Source: Squalus acanthias (taxonomy: Eukaryota). Taken from it: a stretch of DNA of 64,000 nucleotides. The notes below the pieces were generated by a model. The model worked only from the letters and a program-made list of their open reading frames with translations. It made no database searches and had not been told where the DNA came from. This document shows, one piece after another, positions 467 to 56,629 of this stretch. The position numbers and the translations under genes are program-made. The stretch spans positions 86,242,001 through 86,306,000 of the forward strand of contig CM059428.1 of NCBI GenBank assembly GCA_030390025.1. The letters run 5' to 3'. Each line of letters begins with the position of its first letter. Position 1 is the first letter of the stretch.

Positions 467-1569
467 ATGATGACCCACAACGCCTCATGGAAGCCCAGTT
501 TTGAGCTGCTAGATCAGTTCTGAATCACCATTTAACATGATGGTAGTGCCACACAACACGATGGAGGGTGTGCTGAATGTGAATGCTCCTTCGTCTCCAC
601 AAGGACTGTGCGCTGGTCATTCCTACCAATACTGTCTGCAACAGGTAGATTGGCGAGGACGAGGTCAAGTAGGTATTTCCCTCGTGTTGATGTTGTCACC
701 ACCTGGCAGCTATGTCCTTCAGCTCGGTCAGTAATGATGCTACCAATCCACTCTTAGTAATGGACATTGAAGTCCCACACCGAGTACACTCTGTGCTACA
801 TTCATGTGTTCAACATGGAGGAGTACGGATTCGTCAGCTGAGGGAGGGCCGTAGGGTGGAAATCTGCAGGAGATTTTCTTGCCCATGTGTGATTCCTGAT
901 GACATGAGACTTCATGGAGTCCGGTGTCAATGTTGAGGACTCCAAGGGTCAATCCCTCCCTACTGTATACCACAGTGCTGCCACCTCCACTGGGTCTGTC
1001 CGACCGGTGGAACAGGACATATCCACGGATAGTGATGGAGGAATCTCGAATGTTGGCTGATAGGCTTGCCTAGTCTGTGGGGCAGCTCTCCCAATTTTGG
1101 CACAAGTCCTCAGATGTTAGTGAGAAGGATTTTTCAGGGTCATCTGGTCTTGGTGTGCCTTTGTCATGTTCAAATCGGATACCTAGGTCGCTGCCGGGTA
1201 CTCCATCCGGTTTTATTCTTATTGTAATTTTTTTGTAGCAGTTTGATACAAGTGAATGGCTTTCGGGGCCATTTCAGAGGCTGTTAAGAGCCAACCATGT
1301 TGGGTCTGGAGTCACATACAGGCCAGACTGGGTAAGGATGGCAGGATTCCTTTCCTAAAGCACATTAGTAAACCAGTTAGGTTTTTACGACAATCCAATA
1401 GCTTCATGGTAACCATTACTGATACTAGCTTTTTTTTATTCCAGATTTATTTAATTATTGAATTCAAATTCACAAACTGCCTTGGTGGGATTTGGAACTC
1501 ACATCACCGTATTAATAGTCCAGGCTTCTGGATTACTAGTGCAGTAACATAACCACTATGCTACCGTAC
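467..1569 (-). mobile_element. 5' part of a tRNA-headed LINE (tRNA-like head plus degenerate AP-endonuclease region), interrupted at its 5' tip by the provirus
   Basis: Minus strand begins GTACGGTAGCATAGTGG (A box) and has GAGTTCCAAATCCC (B box). The downstream sequence matches the copy at 41608-42243, which encodes PDIVVLTESYL...IPGYVLSHRQDRPTRGGG. The remaining 5' bases (GGG) lie beyond the 3' LTR at 9865-9867. Confidence 0.75.
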
Positions 1570-2782
1570 TGTAGGCTTCGCAAAATCCCCCAGAAACTCG
1601 AACAGAACCCTAAGTGAAGTGATTTGAGGTAAAACTCTCAGTTTTGGACATTTTTAAAGATCAGGGAAGAAAACCCTGAGGAAAATGACTTTTTGAATTT
1701 TACTGTTGGGAAAGACACCTTTTCACAGACACCGACAGGCTGCAGAGGGGCGTGGCCAGGCAGTGTATTAAGCTGTCTGGGAATGTGTTTACACTGCCTT
1801 TCTATCAAAGAGGAAGAGACAAAACCCTAAAGCCTCACACACATGTCAAAATATGAATAATCCAAGACCTCTTTTGAAATTGCCAGGCCACACAGGATGC
1901 CAGGGGCCTGAAATCAATAAAACATTAAGCAACCCAATTTATTCATCAAGAACCAATCAACCAGGTATCCACAGGACAGATTTCAAGCCCGCCAATAGAC
2001 CTAGGACAATAGGGATGAGATTTGGCGCGTAGATAAAGGCCTTGCCTAAATCGGAAAATGATCAGGACATGTTTAACACCAAGTTAAAGCCATCGGAACT
2101 GGCAAGCCCGCCAAAACTAGACAATGGACTAAACAGGGCTCATTTGAAACCTAAAGGAAACCGTTTTAGTAAGGGGCTTTGGGCGCGAAAAGGACAATAT
2201 AATTGGAGCCTGTCGCAGGGCTCGCTCTTTTTGGACTCGCTGACAACGCTGGCACAGCTCTCTCTCTCTCAGCCCTGCTCCAGAGAAGACACCACAAGCC
2301 ACGAGGAGGAGGAAGGAAGGCCAACAACGCCACAAACAGACCATCGCACAAGAAGAAACCAGAGCGACTGCCTCAGTGACCATCGGACACCTCGCAGCAA
2401 CAAGGGCCTTACAAAACTCAAAAGACTCTAGAACCCTGTCAAATCAATTTGTTTGGTGAGCATTATCCCTGATCTCCTGAAACCAAAACCTAGCTAGATA
2501 GTGGGATCTTTGGGAGGGATAAGGTTTTTTTGTTTGGTATATTGTCCTTCTCCCTCGCCTGTACCGTGTGTTCTCCAACCTGTGTTTAAGTATTAGGTGT
2601 GTTTTAAGTTTGTTAGCCTTTTCTTTTAATAGTCAAAATTCTTTCATCAGAACCTGTTGTCTACTGATTTTTTGTTCACAACCCCTAAATAAGTCCAAAG
2701 TCTAGGAACCAGGGGCGTGGGAGCGATTCAAACCGCTCACTGTGTCAGAAGGCGGAGGCTGACCCTATTACCACCCCCTTCA
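1570..2782 (+). repeat. 5' LTR (1213 bp)
   Basis: Starts TGTAGGCTTCG and ends CCCCTTCA. Aligns along its whole length with 8637-9860: about 40 substitutions and 4 indels by manual count. Confidence 0.97.
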
Positions 2783-2784
2783 TA

Positions 2785-4612
2785 ATGGTGACCGCGGCAG
2801 GACTTTGGCGAAAGGGTTGTGAAGCAGTAAATGCTGGTTTTGAGGAGAGAACAAGAACGGAAGAGAGGATGTTATCCTATGTATATAAAAAGGTCAATAT
2901 CACCAAGAAATGGGTCCTCAGGCTGTTGCATGCTGAATGTCCTATTGACGCTGCAGCTGCATGGACTGAGAGCAAGGAATACAATAAGTCTGTGGAGAAA
3001 GCCATATGGTTGGTCTGCTCCCAGAAACAAATGCAGCTTATGGGGAAGTGCATTCAGGCTCTCACAGAAGAGCTAAAGGAAGAAAGCCAACTGTCCCGTC
3101 CCAGAGCTATCGCAGGGGATAAGTTGTTAGCAGAGCTAGACACAAGATCAGGAACAGTCACAGATGGTGGAGGAACACCGTGCCAGTAAGGGATACCTCC
3201 AGTGTCAGGCCACCGAGGCCAAAAGTAGTGAACTGGCATTGCGGGAAGAGAACACCCGCCTTGCCAAGCAATTAAGGGAACTCACAGAGAAGTTAAAAGA
3301 TGTTCAGGCAGCTTACAGAGTAGCCAGTACAAGGGGGTTTGAAGTAGGGGACCACGCCCCCTGTCAGAAGAATATTGAGAGTCTGTACCGTGCTCTGTCC
3401 AAGACAAAAGGCATGATGTACCTGATAAGCCCGGGTGTGGCCCAGGTAGACCTGGAAGAGCAAGGGGAGACTGTTCGACCACCACCTGTGGCGCCAAGGA
3501 GAAGCTTGGTTAGGCAGCAGGAGGGGCAGACAATTTGTGAGGCTGTCAGGGAGAGCACACCAGCACCTATGGCGCCGAGTTTTGACTCAGTCTGGCAGCA
3601 GGGAGATGGGGGCAAACCAATGCAGGAGAAGTCGGAGCCAGGGCCAATGTGCCCAGCGCGACAGCAAAAGTTTGGCCCGCCCGCTGGTGGTGGAGGTCAG
3701 GGACCCCTTGAAAATCAATTTGTGGCTCCCCATGGTACACAACAGCTTAGGGCTATGGTAAGCCATCTGAGTAAACTACCCAAAAGGAAGACCCCTCAGT
3801 CCACTTCATGGAAGTGGAACAGAAAGCAGGCATCAACGACTGTGATGATGCAGAGATGGCAAAAATGCTCCTGTTCTCATTAGATGGCAAACTATACCAG
3901 TCCCTCTCTGCTGAGAGCAAGAGTGGACAGAATGGGTATGCTGCCATCAGAGAGGAGGTTTTAGAGGCCATGGGAATGAATGAGGGAAGTCCTTTCTCCC
4001 GGGTGGAAAAAACAGTGCAGCTCGCAGGGGAGACCCCACAGGCTTTCGCAGACAGACTGTGGCCGGTGTACACGGGTACTTGTAATGGGGATCTCGATCG
4101 AGCTAACCTGAACAGGGATGAGCTGGCCCACTGGCTCCGTAGCCTAGTGGCAAACAGCTTGCCACGAATAAAAACCAAGGCTGAGCTTTGGTTTGACCCG
4201 AAAGACCCCCGGGTCACTGAGGAGGCAGTGGTCAGGCAACTGACCCTAGCCTACCGGAACGGTAGGGGAGCTAAAGACACCCCACCAAAAGGAAAGGTGT
4301 ATGAAATAAAGCCCAGTCAGGATAAGAAGGAGTGGCACCAGGAAAGTGGTAAACCTTCCGACACAAAACGTAACTGCTTTGGGTGCGGGAAGAGGGGGCA
4401 CTGGAGAAAGGACTGTAGAAATCCCTGGAAGGATATACTAACAAAGAATTCCCCAGCTTTAGCCCCAAAAGTAGAGGCACCGACCTCTTCCCCCACACTG
4501 GACACAATAGTAGCGGCCATCAGAGTCCTGTTTGGTGGCCCAGGGAAGGTAGCTACAGCCACTGGTACATTAATCCCATCTGCTCCCCCCCCCCCCTAAC
4601 GCAGACCTATGA
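2785..4612 (+). pseudogene. gag: Retroviral-type gag, frameshifted: coiled coil, capsid MHR-like motif, CCHC zinc knuckle
   Basis: Three overlapping ORFs (2785-3189, 3164-3883, 3808-4599). Heptads LREENTRLAKQLRELTEKLKDVQ; MHR-like QLAGETPQAFADRL; CFGCGKRGHWRKDC at 4375-4416. The true start codon is uncertain. Confidence 0.9.
2786..2803 (+). promoter_or_regulatory. Primer-binding site, tRNA-Ser-like
   Basis: TGGTGACCGCGGCAGGAC, 3 nt after the LTR end. It resembles the complement of the vertebrate tRNA-Ser 3' end (TGGCGTAGTCGGCAGGAT) but imperfectly, so the tRNA identity is tentative. Confidence 0.7.
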
Positions 4613-5638
4613 CTAGAACCAGCGCAGCCTGTCTACCTGTGTTCCCCGGGATACAATGGTAAGAAGTGGGTGGAGAATGTGCAGGGGAGATGTTTGGTGG
4701 ACACCGGAGCTGCCAGCACGGTGGTCCAATCAGAAGACCTGACCAATTCACCCAGGTCTAACGGGGTCCCGTACAGTTTAATGGGAATCACAGGGAACAA
4801 GCAGGCTGGGGCAATGTCCAAACCTTTGGACATAGATTTAGGATCCCTCCATACCACGTGGGAGGGTAACCAAAAGGCCAACAAGTTGGCCAAGCAGGGG
4901 GCCAAGGAAGGAGAGTTCTGGGATCCCTATAAAGCAGGTCCGGTAGCTGCAATCCGGGACAAGGGAGGCACACAGGAGGTAGCTTTGCCCCCGGACTTAA
5001 AGCAGGTCCAAGCCCAGAATCCCATCCTTCAGGCCATCCTGGTAGAGAGAGAGAGTGGGGAGTCCCTTGAAGGTACGTTCAGGGCAGCGGATGAGATTTT
5101 AAAACAGAGTCACTGGCAAGCAGCCAGTAACCTGGGGAGCCAGCACCAGAAAGATCGGCTGCTGCTAGAACCCCAGAGAACCCATGAGTGGGAGATTGAC
5201 CAGTGTAAACTGTTTAAACCCGAGAGCAGGGAACAGCCAGCAAAGGTGGACTGCCCCCAAGTTAGAAATCCTCAGCCAGCAGCAGCTGTGGCAGACGCAC
5301 AAGCTGCAGCGGGAGGAACAGTGTGTTGTTTCACAGGAGAGAACACTCCACCGATTATGTGGGACTCAAGCACACCCCCAGTGGCCAGAGCCCTAAGAAG
5401 GTCTCCCCGCACACCACAGCCAAGGCTACTGTGGCCACAGGTGTATCTGTTTAGAGGGTCCCACCCAAAGAGGGTTGCAACCCGAAAAAGAGCGCCCAAG
5501 AACAGGGAGCATTCTAAAGTTGGGGATTCCCAGCCTACAGCCTCCAACAGTGAGGGATTCACAGGAGAGGTAGTACTGGAAAAAGAGAGAAGGGTCCCCC
5601 GCCTGCAGCCTCAGGCTGGGAGGAGCCCACAGATATGA
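4613..5638 (+). pseudogene. pol: Internally deleted pol: aspartic protease N-part, RNase H C-terminal helix, integrase-flanking remnants, C-terminal extension
   Basis: LVDTGA (DTG at 4700-4708) and flap-like LMGITG, then directly EGNQKANKLAKQGA (RNase H C-terminus type GNxxADxLAKxGA). Next come DLKQVQAQNPIL (pre-integrase linker) and HWQAASNLG...HEWEIDQCKLF (integrase C-terminal pieces). No YxDD and no DDE core. Confidence 0.85.
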
Positions 5639-6024
5639 ACGAGGGCGCTGCAGCCACACCAAAGGGGGTAGTGTGCTGCAGCACAGGACTCAGCTGGGAT
5701 GTTAAGATACCCCCAGCGGTTTTGAGGAAGGCCTTCTGGGTCCGGCGGTACAGGCCGCACTACACCCAGGTGTACAAGCCATCCAGAGGCCACATAAGGC
5801 AGAGACTAAACAGGATTTAACCTGGCCGTCCGGAGACGGGCGGCAAATGTACAGAATTTTCGGTTTTAAGTAATTGCAGTTTTGGTAGTTATGGGTTATC
5901 ATTAGTTTAGTTATTTGTAGAGTTTTTTTTTTAAGTTTAAGGGCTTGATTAATTATCCAGCCAGAAAACCTTTCTGGAACATGGATATATGTTTTGTGTG
6001 TGCCCTTACAGAAAGGATTTCAGA

Positions 6025-8355
6025 ATGACAAGGGTTCTGCTCCTGCTCGCCCTGGTGACGTGGAGGACTCCCACATTTATGGGTGCTCAGGAGAGAGAGC
6101 ACCAGTTGTCACCGCAGGGGGCGGCGAACGGGGAGTGGAGGAGCTCGCCATCTACTTCCACGAGGGAAGGTGGCCAGGGTGGCTGGGGTCCAACTCTACT
6201 AAATACTCCAACCAGCCTGGGTTCACGTATGGAGAGGCCTCCCTCCCATGCCCCAGAATACAGGTCGTTGCCACAAGGGTCAGTGTCACCGAGGGGGAGC
6301 ATATGTGCCTTACCTGTAAGGGACGAATTCTCCTGAATAGGTGGTGGTGGCTGAGGAAGCTGAGCAGGGACGCAGGGGACCATACAGCCGACTGGGAAAG
6401 ATTAGGGAATGACACCTACCGGACAATCACAGGGACCCAAGGAGGAGTGAGTGTGTGTTGGGATAAGTGGTGGGAGTCGGAACAGGGAGTCTATGTTTGT
6501 ATGTGAGGATCAGAGGAAGCCTGCCCCACAGGGGTATCCATCATCTTCTCCAGCCAATGGCAAGATGCCGGGGAGGGGATAGGGTGGGATTCTAGCCTGC
6601 ATGGGTGCGTGGTCCCACACATTCCGGTCCCAGTTAATGTCACTGAACTCGTGGCACACACCCGAAAGCCCCTACCCAAGACCCAAGTACTGAAAACCCT
6701 GGAAGAAAAGTGCCCTACCACCACCGAGGGACCAGGGAATGGGTTAGTCCTAGTACCAACCGAAAAGGTACTATACCAGGGGGTACACTATGCAGTAGCT
6801 TCAGTAATATTAAACCTTACCGAGGTATACTTACCCGAGTGGTGTCCTAAGGAGACGGAGCAGCTGTACCAGGCCCTGCTAAAGGAAATGTTTAGGAAAT
6901 TTTACAAATTTGATTTTGCCAATATAGACAAAGTAGAGCTATACAGAATACACCCTGAGAACCCTATGGGCACGGGTAGACAAAGAAGGGGAGCCTGGAA
7001 TTATGTTTTCACTGCCTATAGCACAGGATTCTCTGTAATAAATAGCCTGGATGACATGGAATTACAGACACAGATAAATGGTTTAAAAACCCAGTTAAGA
7101 AAGATCCTGAAGGATGGGAACACAGTGGTAGGCTCAGAGCTACATGAAGACCAAGCTATGACGATTCATTTAAAGGAAATTATTGCAGAATTGGAAAGGC
7201 ATGCCAAAACAGTGAATGCACTCATACGGGAGGATAGGAATGCATCGGATCAGGCTGCACAGAACGAGGTGTGTGTGCTATACGGGGCATGGTTGCTGGG
7301 CGAGGGCCGTAGCAACCTGCAGGATTTAAAGCAAGGTTTAGTCCCCTCCTGGATCAGCAACAAGCACCTCGCAGCCCTCCACCCGTTTAGTAATTCGCTG
7401 AGCCCATGCCAATTTCATATAGCCTCTGAAGCCTACCCTGTCCCAATAGATTGTGGGCGTTCCAATCACACTATAATGGGGATAGTAGTGAGAATGCAGG
7501 TCATGAGTGGGACAGCCTGACCCGTACCGGTATACAGGGTGGAGAATATTGAAGTCATTCAAGGGGGTGCACACATCTGTTTTACAGCGGTCCCACCTTA
7601 TGTCATAAAGTGGGAGCACGCCATGACAGGTACTGACCTCTCCGGGTGCCAGAACCAGGGTTCACACATAATACTCTGTCCCCAGTACTTGAACACCTAT
7701 TCGAAACCACAGTGCAGGTTTAAAGCTGCTGGCGCACGACCTATCAACTGTACCATGGACGTAATGGCACACGGCCATGTTTCCCCACAGGTAGCATATA
7801 TAGGGGGTGGGACATATTGTGTCACCATAGGTGCGTCCCACTACCAGCATGGACACTTCTGGTGTCCAGTAAGTGACAGCAGTTTTCTGCTTTAAACCCG
7901 AGGCAGAAGTTCAAGTGGCCCAGGAACGGATTATCCCCATTCCTGAACCCTCCACTGTTCACCTCACTGTAACAGAAAACATCACCAACCTGCAAAAGTA
8001 TGTGACTTACTTTGGATATAAAATTCCCCCTCTACCCGAAAATCTTGCCATCCTAATTAAAGCTGTAGAGATTTCACAAAAACATTTCTACACCCTGGAA
8101 CAGAAAACAGTTGAAATAGGGGCAGAGATTTTGGATATAGTAGTTAGACCCTGGTGGGATATTTTTGAGAATATAGAGGTGCCTTCCTGGATCAGGATAG
8201 CTTCCCATCTTTTGGTGGTCTGCCAGCTCGGGATAGTTCTCTACCTGCTGTGTACAAAGTGCAGGGGAAGGAACGGGGAGCTCCGTTCCAGACACGAAGG
8301 GACTTGGGAAGTGCATCAAAATAAAGGCTATGGCCAGGGATGGAACGAACCTTGA
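6025..8355 (+). pseudogene. env: env: signal peptide, Ig-like domain, F-type class I fusion protein, TM; two stops and two frameshifts
   Basis: Signal MTRVLLLLALVTW at 6025. ORFs 5994-6506, 6609-7520 and 7539-7895 share one frame, separated by single TGA codons. Furin site RQRR at 6978-6989, then fusion peptide GAWNYVFTAYSTGFSVINS, a heptad repeat and a Cys-rich block. A +1 frameshift near 7882 leads to TM IASHLLVVCQLGIVLYLLC. Confidence 0.88.
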
Positions 8356-8625
8356 TTTTGCCTTTTAATAAAAAAAATTGTATGTGTGTTGTGTCATTTT
8401 TATGATGTGCATGATGTGTTTTTCCAAACTGTGCAGGGGTGTCGGACCCTCTCCATGCTGGGATGTGAAATAAAGATTGATTCTTACCTGTATGTACCTG
8501 AAACATCACATTTAAAAGGGGAATGTTAGTTTGGGTTTTTAGTTTAGGTAATACAGGGGAAGGTTGGTTTTCGGGGATCAGAAATTTTGCTCACCTGTTA
8601 ATGATACTAATTCAGGTTTAGTATC

Positions 8626-8636
8626 AAAGTGGGGAA
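8626..8636 (+). promoter_or_regulatory. Polypurine tract
   Basis: AAAGTGGGGAA immediately before the TG of the 3' LTR. Confidence 0.85.
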
Positions 8637-9860
8637 TGTAGGCTTCGCAAAATCCCCCAGAAACTCGAACAGAACCCTAAGTGAAGTGATTTGAGGTAAA
8701 ACCCTCAGTTTTGGACATTTTTAAAGATCAGGGAAGAAAACCCTGAGGAAATGACTTTTTGAATCTTACTGTTGGGAAAGACGCCTTTTCACAGACACCG
8801 ACAGGCTGCAGAGGGGCGTGACCAGGCAGTGTATTAAGCTGTCTGGGAATGTGTTTACACTGCCTTTCTATCAAGGAGGAAGAGACAAAACCCAAAAGCC
8901 TCACACACACATCAAAATATGAATAATCCAAGACCTCTTTTGAAATTGCCAGGCCACACAGGATGCCAGGGGCCTGAAATCAATAAAACATTAAGCAACC
9001 CGATTTACTTCATCAAGAACCAACCAACCAGGTATCCACAGGACAGATTTAAAGCCCGCCAATAGACCTAGGACAATAGGGATGAGATTTGGCGCGTAGA
9101 TAAAGGCCTTGCCTAAATCGGAAAACGATCAGGACATGTTTAACACCAAGTTAAAGCCATTGGAACTGGCAAGCCTGCCAAAACTAGACAATGGACTAAA
9201 CAGGGCTCATTTGAAACCTAAAGGAAACCGTTTTAGTAAGGGGCTTTGGGCACGAAAAGGACAATATAATTGGAGCCTGTCCCAGGGCTCGCTCTTTTTG
9301 GACTCGCTGACCACGCTGGCACAGCTCTCTCTCTCTCTCTCTCTCTCAGCCCTGCTCCAGAGAAGACACCACAAGCCACGAGGAGGAGGAAGGAAGGCCA
9401 ACAACTCCACAAACAGACCATCACACAAGAAGAAACCAGAGCAACTGCCTCAGTGACTATCGGACACCTCGCAGCAACAAGGGCCTTACGAAACTCCAAA
9501 GACTCTAGAACCCGGTCAAATCAATTCATTTGGTGAGCATTATCCCTGATCTCCTGAAACCAAAACCTAGCTAGATAGTGGGATCTTTGGGAGGGATAAG
9601 GTTTTTTTGTTTGGTATATTGTCCTTCTCCCTAGCCTGTACCGTGTGTTCCCCAACCTGTGTTTAAGTATTAAGTGTGTTTTAAGTTTGTTAGCCTTTCC
9701 TTTTAATAGTCAAAATTCTTTCATCAGAACCTGTTGTCTACTGCATTTTTTGTTCACAGCCCCTAAATAAGTACAAAGTCTAGGAACCAGGGGCATGGGA
9801 GCGATTTGAACCACTCACTGAGTCAGAAGGCGAAGGCTGACCCCATTACCACCCCCTACA
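8637..9860 (+). repeat. 3' LTR (1224 bp)
   Basis: TGTAGG...CCTACA 6-bp terminal inverted repeat, followed by TSD GTAC. Its (CT)n tract is 10 nt longer than in the 5' LTR. Confidence 0.97.
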
Positions 9861-11089
9861 GTACCCCTGGTATTCAAAATTTAGCAATATATACAAAGGC
9901 TTCAAAAAAACATACAGCTGCATCAGCAGCCAGAAGAAATAATTCAGCAACTAAACTGTTAGTAGTTCATGATCCTTTTAAATAGCGCTGGTTGTGGGTC
10001 CTTCATTTTGTTTATTGCCATGTTCAGCTGTGCGATGTTAAGACAGGGAATTGACTGGAGTATGCAGTTCAAAATAGGCAGCGCTGGTGTCAAATCAGTG
10101 TTGCACTCTGATTTGCGTCATAATCTGCCCATTTTTGATCCTTATGTGGCCACGTAGCACCTAATAAATGGGCGCTACACAGCCCAATTTAACTCGCATT
10201 GGGGTGTTACTGTCCCTAATCCAGCAAAGGAGGACCTTGCTTTTAGACCCTGAAAGAAGGAGGCCCATGTAATAGCATAATCATGTGTGTGGCAGGAGGT
10301 GGCCTTGGCAGTGCTTGCTACCTCACCCTGTTAAAGAATGTCGCTTGATACCAGAGTTGCATTCATTGTGACGGCACGCAGTCAGCCTTGACAATCTACA
10401 TTCTTCTTACAGGGGCAACACTTCTCAGCCAAAAACAAGGAAGTACCTTCTCAATTATTCAAGGATAGGGCTGTAAAACATCATTCAGGCACCTCAGAAC
10501 CTCCTGCCACTGTAGGCGATGGAGGAGGCTACGATAAAAAGGGTACACAAGAGGAGGCTTGACAAGAGTGGCCTTAAACAATAAGAAGATTGTCAGATTT
10601 GTTGTCAGTGAGATATTTTTACAACTGACAGGATATGTGCAGAATGATTAGGGGCAAAGTGGGAGGTTGCCTGCTCAAAGGAGTAGCAGAATAATCACCA
10701 AATGGAAGCTTTGGGAATTGCGGGGAGAGCTCAATGTTAGCAAGTAAATGAGTCGAGTTAGTTGCCAACATGCTGGCAGGATTCATTTGCAATTGTACTC
10801 AGATCTCAATCAGCTGAAGGGTTCCCTTATGAGCTGTGTCCAGAGCTATCTGCATAGTTCAGTTATTGCTTTATGAAGGAAGCACAGCGTACTGAAGTAT
10901 TGCCGAGGGGGGGGTCACAGTGAAGTTGTGTGCTTGGATCTGCAGACAGGGAGGTGTGGGTACCAGCGGCTGCCTACTGTGCTTGTGGTGACCCTCCTTG
11001 TCCTCCTCAATGCAGAGGAGCAAGGAAGACCGAAGGAATTCTCCACTGGCTCCCATAAAAGTTTGGTGGGAGGGGGAGTGAGGTGTTCT

Positions 11090-56124: not shown

Positions 56125-56553
56125 GTTTTTTTATATTCATTCACGGGATGTGGGCATCGCTGACTAGGCCAGCATTTATTGCCCATCCCTAATTGCCCTT
56201 GAGAAGGTGATGGGGAGCCATATCTTGACAACTGAGTGGCTTGCTAGGCCATTTCAGAGGGCAGTTAAGAGTCACCTACATTGTATTGGGTCTGGAGTTA
56301 CATATAGGCCAAATCGGGTAAGGACGGCAGATTTCCTTCCCTAAAGGACATTAGTGAACCAGATGGGTTTTTACGACAATCGGTAGTTCCATGGTCACCA
56401 TTACTGACACTAGCCTTTTATTCCAGATTTATTTAATTTAGCCGACTTTAAATTCCCCAGCTGCCGTGGTGGGATTTGAACTCACGTCTCCGGATCATTA
56501 GTCCAGGCCTCTGGATTACTAGACCAGGAACATAACCACGATGCTACCATACC
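56125..56553 (-). mobile_element. tRNA-derived SINE: head and tail of the tRNA-headed LINE with the ORF absent
   Basis: A/B boxes GGTAGCATCGTGG and GAGTTCAAATCCC. Head matches 1255-1569; tail matches 30105-30185. Confidence 0.85.
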
Positions 56554-56629
56554 ACCAAACAAAGAGAAACAAAGAGGCGCCAAAATTCCGGTGCAGATCA
56601 TGGGTGGGGAATGGGAAGATCTAGTTACT

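Follow-up and report, generated by a model that had tools for sequence, protein, structure and literature searches.

A pol-deleted provirus from a multi-copy family of endogenous retroviruses that groups with canonical retroviruses, probably in a cartilaginous fish

The 64,000-nucleotide stretch of contig CM059428.1 analyzed here (positions 86,242,001 to 86,306,000 of the forward strand; hereafter, the window) carries a provirus at positions 1570 to 9860. Very probably, this is a decayed, pol-deleted copy from a multi-copy family of endogenous retroviruses (ERVs), the full-length members of which belong with canonical retroviruses, likely, as a class III lineage similar to snakehead retrovirus (SnRV); the pol-deleted form likely spread on the enzymes of helpers, and the host is likely a cartilaginous fish. 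The original prediction, made from the letters of the window alone, described a lokiretrovirus-like provirus with long terminal repeats (LTRs), a 4-bp target-site duplication and a Gag protein with one CCHC knuckle. The provirus is real, and all these structural features were confirmed. It is not, however, a lokiretrovirus: in trees of reverse transcriptase (RT), its full-length siblings fall among canonical retroviruses, apart from lokiretroviruses, and their RNase H does not group with that of lokiretroviruses either. The claim of a first lokiretrovirus in a shark thus fails, and SnRV-like ERVs of cartilaginous fishes are already known.

A family with full-length and pol-less members

Searches for the family covered the 3.71-Gb genome from which the window comes. 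With gag as the query, 40 of 1105 candidates were scored, all of them at least 93% identical; with RT, 150 of 16000 candidates were scored, all with at least 91% amino-acid identity. Among 20 gag siblings fetched at 10 kb, nine contain ~3.4 kb of pol that the window copy lacks, and 11 share the deletion. In the full-length siblings, the protease, RVT_1, tether-type RT_RNaseH, RNase_H, H2C2, and rve domains follow one another in this order, including the dual arrangement of tether and RNase H that was to be looked for. The deletion junction itself has 373 matches in the genome at no more than one mismatch, against 0 for the reversed control. Altogether, hundreds of copies of the family are present in this genome.

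The window copy has no RT, as originally noted, and every reading frame in it has since been lost: gag contains frameshifts near positions 3145, 3778, and 4590, and env is interrupted by stop codons near 6505 and 7519 in addition to frameshifts near 6057 and 7884. These breaks, as well as the remnants of protease and integrase, had not been mentioned in the original prediction. What is left of RNase H corresponds to the C-terminus of a domain of the RNase H1 type; the element is retrovirus-like and not Ty3/Gypsy-like, as first thought.

In three of the other organisms listed, sequence with at least 90% identity covers 29–30 of 30 bins; thus, the family is common to several organisms. All four named matches to Env come from a sawshark or a skate (66–72% identity), and among the nine of 28 matches looked up in a second Env search, eight come from sharks and one from a frog. 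On this indirect evidence, the host is probably a cartilaginous fish, as had been proposed. Neither the query RT nor a lokiretrovirus proxy could be traced to a viral contig, and we found no metagenome locus for a relative and no RNA record that contains the element. The literature searched, which excludes most subscription papers, describes neither this family nor a lokiretrovirus in sharks.

Phylogenetic placement of the full-length siblings

The trees were built from natural proteins, among which SnRV, four foamy viruses, walleye dermal sarcoma virus, murine leukemia virus (MuLV), feline leukemia virus (FeLV), and koala retrovirus (KoRV) were identified by short motifs; the labels of the lokiretrovirus, ERV-L, epsilon-like, delta, and Ty3/Gypsy rows are assignments from motifs as well. 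The rows were picked by hand (103 of 218 RT-bearing matches in one tree, 44 in a tree of RT plus tether, and 52 in two further trees), without Odin elements, fish foamy-like ERVs, alpha-, beta- and lentiviruses, or amphibian, coelacanth, and lamprey lokiretroviruses. Among the proxies, one from an eel is similar to the published lokiretrovirus that branches off first.

In all four trees, the query, that is, the RT of the full-length siblings, is within canonical retroviruses, with support of 99 (SH-aLRT, 103 rows), 99/99 (RT plus tether), 100/98, and 100/95 (mixture model). The lokiretrovirus proxies form a separate clade (100/99–100) that excludes the query. The nearest relatives of the query are Pol proteins of frog and coelacanth ERVs (45–54% RT identity; clade support 96/95 and 98/92); the RT identity is 46% to SnRV, 34–38% to the lokiretrovirus proxies, 34–37% to foamy viruses, and 34–37% to gamma/epsilon viruses. 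By these sequence comparisons, the full-length siblings group with canonical retroviruses, not lokiretroviruses, and they also show the gag-pol-env layout between LTRs and the dual RNase H of canonical Retroviridae.

The original proposal of a chondrichthyan lokiretrovirus could draw on the dual RNase H, which is common to all retroviruses, the F-type Env and the lokiretrovirus-like integrase scores; on the RT core, moreover, the union of the wider 11-row clade around the query with lokiretroviruses was not rejected (p 0.088). Nevertheless, it is very improbable. In approximately unbiased (AU) tests, the grouping of the query with lokiretroviruses was rejected (p 0.006 and 0.031), in line with the four trees; in a short, 154-column alignment of RNase H, the query is on the SnRV/gamma/epsilon side (91/92), apart from the lokiretrovirus clade (99/99). 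Together, the four RT trees and the two AU tests exclude the query from lokiretroviruses. Furthermore, when the sibling RT was compared by eye with the RT alignment in the consulted portion of the PMC7947760 supplement, it shared the motifs of the SnRV row and not those of the lokiretrovirus rows, and the long N-terminal extension of Env is apparently missing from the Xenopus lokiretrovirus Env.

A foamy-like virus, or a Ty3/Gypsy element with an env, is extremely improbable, even though foamy Env ranks near the top in the fold comparison (Z 9.1) and the RT scores alike against the solved RTs of foamy virus and MuLV. The grouping of the query with the mammalian foamy viruses was rejected (AU test, p 0.011), and the zinc knuckle in Gag and the gag-stop-pol arrangement in a single frame also argue against it, so that the family does not fit Spumaretrovirinae; the position of the RT outside Ty3/Gypsy (100/99–100) and the presence of a second RNase H exclude Metaviridae as well. 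An Odin retrotransposon was rejected given the presence of env (Odin RT was not in the trees).

Several observations, in addition to the AU result on the 11-row clade, weigh against an SnRV-like assignment. The query and SnRV form a clade in no tree; this constraint was only not rejected (p 0.41, or p 0.35 with ERV-L). The integrase scores 201–216 bits against the lokiretrovirus proxies (106 for a partial one) vs 127 bits against SnRV, and the SnRV integrase groups apart from that of the query. BLASTP detected no significant similarity between the Env of the family and that of SnRV, and in Gag, the knuckle alone matched. Finally, the shark family has no 3' accessory open reading frame such as SnRV has.

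Under another reading, the query represents a separate lineage (shark, frog, coelacanth, turtle), the earliest-branching among canonical retroviruses, apart from SnRV and with a lokiretrovirus-like integrase and an F-type Env. Such a reading, which we regard as unlikely, differs from the favored one in rank, not in mechanism. The query clade is the first branch among canonical retroviruses at a bootstrap of 80–81, outside the group of SnRV, ERV-L, foamy, class I, and delta viruses (80/93 and 81/85) and, in the 103-row tree, outside a 95% group that lacks foamy viruses. Outside its own clade, the integrase is nearest to lokiretroviruses, and in Xenopus, a protein with an RT from the query clade precedes, in a fusion, the N-terminus of an Env that belongs to the same family. 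However, the bootstrap is only ~80, neither the monophyly of clade Huo (p 0.35) nor a foamy-first topology (p 0.31) was rejected, and the root depends on distant outgroups, with the fish foamy-like, Odin, and alpha/beta/lentivirus rows missing. The integrase tree, which did not include CGIN1, gives no resolved position and does not reject the union of the clade with lokiretroviruses (p 0.36). The fallback in the original prediction, a new sister group, retains weak backing in the early branch and in the integrase scores.

Two more well-supported RT clades (rows P0021, P0010, P0018, and P0023, and rows P0033, P0138, and P0139) consist of fish and shark retroelements located between SnRV and the class I viruses. 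The part of PMC9447858 consulted does not say from which lineage the NYNRIN integrase came.

A predicted F-type Env

The Env model derived from a 22-row alignment (pLDDT 67; a single-sequence fold with a pLDDT of 33 was not used) matches the F protein of a paramyxovirus, human parainfluenza virus 3 (hPIV3), in Foldseek (E 1.4e-8), with 33 matches to viral F-type glycoproteins at E ≤0.001. Without Foldseek (VIA), the model aligns with the F protein of Newcastle disease virus (NDV) at Z 9.2 (rmsd 20.6, 258 aligned) and with foamy Env at Z 9.1 (rmsd 5.2, 233 aligned). Atlas features concur with an F-type assignment (0.92; PF00523 on 47% of the cluster). Searches of Env in Pfam and PDB gave no sequence-level match to PF00523 or F. 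Env is thus predicted, from its modeled fold, to be a class Ib (F-type) fusogen, which bears out the F-type env of the original prediction. The N-terminal extension of Env produced only weak Ig_3 matches, under the cut-off (best E 4e-4).

The Env profile matches SnRV Env (91.9%, E 7e-7, 343 columns) and, more weakly, the walleye virus Env (68%, 344 columns) and foamy Env (42%, 118 columns), but not the MuLV Env control (8.6%, 22 columns). Because the profile also aligns with the SnRV, walleye, and foamy proteins, an F-type Env is not diagnostic of lokiretroviruses. The env genes of SnRV (6131–9532) and walleye dermal sarcoma virus (5962–9648) are collinear with the F-type profile over ~340 columns, and the fold search also returned the Env of walleye epidermal hyperplasia virus as a weak match (E 0.035). 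The Env from the frog aligns with the C-terminal portion of a Xenopus protein (E 1e-31), the RT of which belongs to the query clade. Foamy Env is known to be F-like according to the consulted part of PMC11468914; in the literature searched, we found no description of SnRV or epsilonretrovirus Env as F-type, although Calcraft 2024 (Cell) may already treat the Env folds of fish retroviruses.

Origin and persistence of the pol-less form

The pol remnant of the window copy (RNase H plus short integrase pieces) is ~70% identical to full-length pol and 87–98% identical to the remnants in other pol-less copies. The junction loci examined were the first 20 exact matches listed on the plus strand. Three of these have a gag of the window type (92–94% identity) and 17 have a gag with 67–81% identity; eight keep most of env. 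The tree of the remnant is shallow, and the tree of gag contains at least three deep lineages. In the gag and env trees, pol-less and full-length copies interleave, with five and seven state changes, respectively. Five pol-less copies (L020, L022, L026, L030, L084) are without most of env as well and are further deletion derivatives.

We compared the ratio of nonsynonymous to synonymous polymorphism (pN/pS) for shared non-CpG variants. This ratio is 0.23 for gag in 15 pol-less copies (49 synonymous, 38 nonsynonymous) and 0.14 for env in 10 env-bearing pol-less copies (15 and 7), vs 1.68 for the pol remnant (5 and 29); for private variants, the ratios are 0.62, 0.46, and 1.08, respectively. Judging from these variants, gag and env in the pol-less copies appear to be under purifying selection. 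Together with this selection signature, the occurrence of one fixed junction on at least three gag lineages suggests that the pol-less form depends on full-length helpers and recombines with them. Under this scenario, pol-less RNA would be packaged with helper RNA or helper Gag-Pol and primed with tRNA-Arg, the enzymes of the helper would carry out reverse transcription and integration, and template switching would refresh its gag, env, and LTRs. Ribosomes would read through the gag stop to produce Pol, and env would be expressed from spliced RNA. Two considerations detract from this scenario: most of the state changes fall on weakly supported forks, one fork at 97% joining the window gag with six full-length copies, and the signature of purifying selection could have been imported from the helpers.

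On a more speculative and rather doubtful note, the shark-frog-coelacanth clade might be the earliest canonical branch, having kept an ancestral lokiretrovirus-like integrase and F-type Env, with a single pol-less cassette persisting in the shark as a satellite through recombination with several helper lineages.

The two LTRs of the window copy differ at 40 of 1212 columns (3.3%; Kimura two-parameter distance 0.034), 14 of the 40 substitutions being of the CpG type, in agreement with the original estimate of about 3–3.5%. That this divergence means "not ancient" is unsupported: with the formula and rates given in the part of PMC4422223 consulted, 0.034 corresponds to ~77 million years at the shark rate or ~8 million years at the mammal rate, and the same source dates an equal LTR distance in elephant shark to 75 million years. 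The LTRs of three other pol-less copies are 1.3–1.8% apart; distances of 0.28 and 0.145 were disregarded due to poor boundaries, and seven of the 20 junction loci have no LTR pair. Among family copies, LTRs are far more variable (76–98%) than gag or env.

Primer-binding site

The primer-binding site (PBS) had been called Ser-like. A pattern based on it has 423 matches in the same genome (0 for the control), and ARAGORN called tRNA-Arg(TCG) at the match in all three loci scanned of six fetched. A tRNA-Ser primer was therefore rejected. Most of the first 100 listed matches fall in long tandem arrays with a period of ~1.6 kb on one contig (C26, 38.99–42.2 Mb), which contain tRNA-Arg(TCG) and tRNA-Ser(GCT) genes; the primer tRNA of the family is thus very abundant in gene copies. 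In the SnRV contig, the PBS is complementary to a tRNA-Arg(ACG) gene (one of six pattern loci scanned is a tRNA gene). Many further matches to the SnRV PBS pattern sit ~2.1 kb from deletion junctions, and among the 20 junction loci, the gag lineage that diverges most, a sister lineage sharing the pol deletion, comprises six copies, five of which contain the SnRV primer sequence with 0–2 mismatches.

Structure of the window copy and its surroundings

The features of the provirus are collected in Table 1. Gag contains a single CCHC knuckle (with a Pfam score slightly below the curated cut-off) and a PSAP-type motif, and its N-terminal part has charged, heptad-rich stretches with a predicted coiled coil, as originally suggested, on a crude score only. 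The gag frame opens with an ATG at 2785–2787 that overlaps the PBS, and in an unbroken sibling, the frame is open from there. A stop codon in a context of the TGA-CTAG type favors read-through; this context is present in all nine full-length siblings and in five of the eight pol-less siblings in which the site was located, the other three differing. The only AATAAA in the LTR at 1570–2782 (position 1916) is upstream of the TATA-like box; past that box, we detected no canonical poly(A) signal in this LTR.

Table 1. Coordinates of the provirus features in the window
Feature	Position	Strand	Basis
5' target-site duplication, GTAC	1566..1569	+	sequence
5' LTR, 1213 nt, TG...CA ends, TATA-like box at 2198	1570..2782	+	
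PBS for tRNA-Arg(TCG), 17/18 positions matching tRNA genes of the same genome	2786..2803	+	
gag (~600 codons in siblings; start codon uncertain)	2785..4612	+	
gag stop TGA followed by CTAG, in the same frame as pol; likely read-through site (candidate)	4610..4616	+	
Protease N-terminal remnant, terminating at the fixed deletion junction	4613..4861	+	
C-terminal remnant of RNase H and short pieces of integrase, ~70% identity to pol of full-length siblings, 90–98% to other pol-less copies	4862..5198	+	
Integrase C-terminal tail, 92–96% identity to most full-length siblings	5199..5820	+	
env: signal peptide, ~240-residue N-terminal extension, F-type fusion core (predicted)	6025..8355	+	
env: furin site; membrane anchor; 33-residue tail	6978; ~8197-8253	+	
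env splice acceptor (likely)	6010-6011	+	
Polypurine tract	8626..8636	+	sequence
3' LTR, 1224 nt, TG...CA ends	8637..9860	+	
3' target-site duplication, GTAC	9861..9864	+	sequence

The flanks at 700–1569 and 12700–63700 are repeat-rich, the 5' flank being a high-copy repeat, and no host gene was recognized in them. Most of the long frames elsewhere in the window resemble, by eye, pieces of non-LTR retrotransposons (CR1/L2-like). A tRNA-Thr(AGT) was called at 56460–56554 on the minus strand.

Comparison with known systems

An F-type Env inside canonical retroviruses of fishes and frogs bears on the question of how retroviral Env arose, for which the consulted portion of PMC7947760 outlines four scenarios that are still open, and hundreds of helper and pol-less copies make a good data set on the recombination-based persistence of a defective, env-keeping retrovirus. 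ERVs clustering with SnRV have been reported from elephant shark (CmiERV lineage I, in the part of PMC4422223 seen), and SnRV-like elements from Xenopus (PMC4131045, in part). As far as the accessible sections go, every major lineage of vertebrates is infected by members of clade Huo (PMC6001957), the SnRV clade is treated in PMC12193657, and none of three chondrichthyan genomes was positive in the lokiretrovirus survey (PMC7947760 supplement).

Among named viruses, SnRV has the highest RT identity to the family and shares with it a tRNA-Arg primer, a homologous Env core, gag and pol in a single frame separated by one stop, a one-knuckle Gag with a charged, heptad-rich N-terminus and a PSAP-like motif, and, in the RNase H tree, a position on the same side. 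It differs in the primer isoacceptor (ACG in SnRV vs TCG in the window subfamily), whereas the shark family has the TGA-CTAG junction, a shorter Env with a 33-residue tail, and an integrase that does not group with that of SnRV. The "NYNRIN-like" ERV Pol proteins of Pyxicephalus, Aquarana, Rhinophrynus, Xenopus, and Latimeria include the nearest RTs and, in frogs, the same Env family, but these are database proteins and not described families.

Lokiretroviruses, as presented in the part of PMC7947760 consulted, resemble the family in the tether plus RNase H, the F-type Env, and, by scores, the integrase, but the shark RT and RNase H lie outside their clade, and the shark Env has the long N-terminal extension that, by eye, Xenopus lokiretrovirus Env appears to lack. 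With foamy Env and the F proteins of paramyxoviruses and pneumoviruses, which the consulted part of PMC11468914 treats as class Ib fusogens, the family shares the predicted fold of the Env core at a sequence identity of only 8–15%; the extra domain of the shark protein is N-terminal to this core, whereas that of foamy Env is inserted in it.

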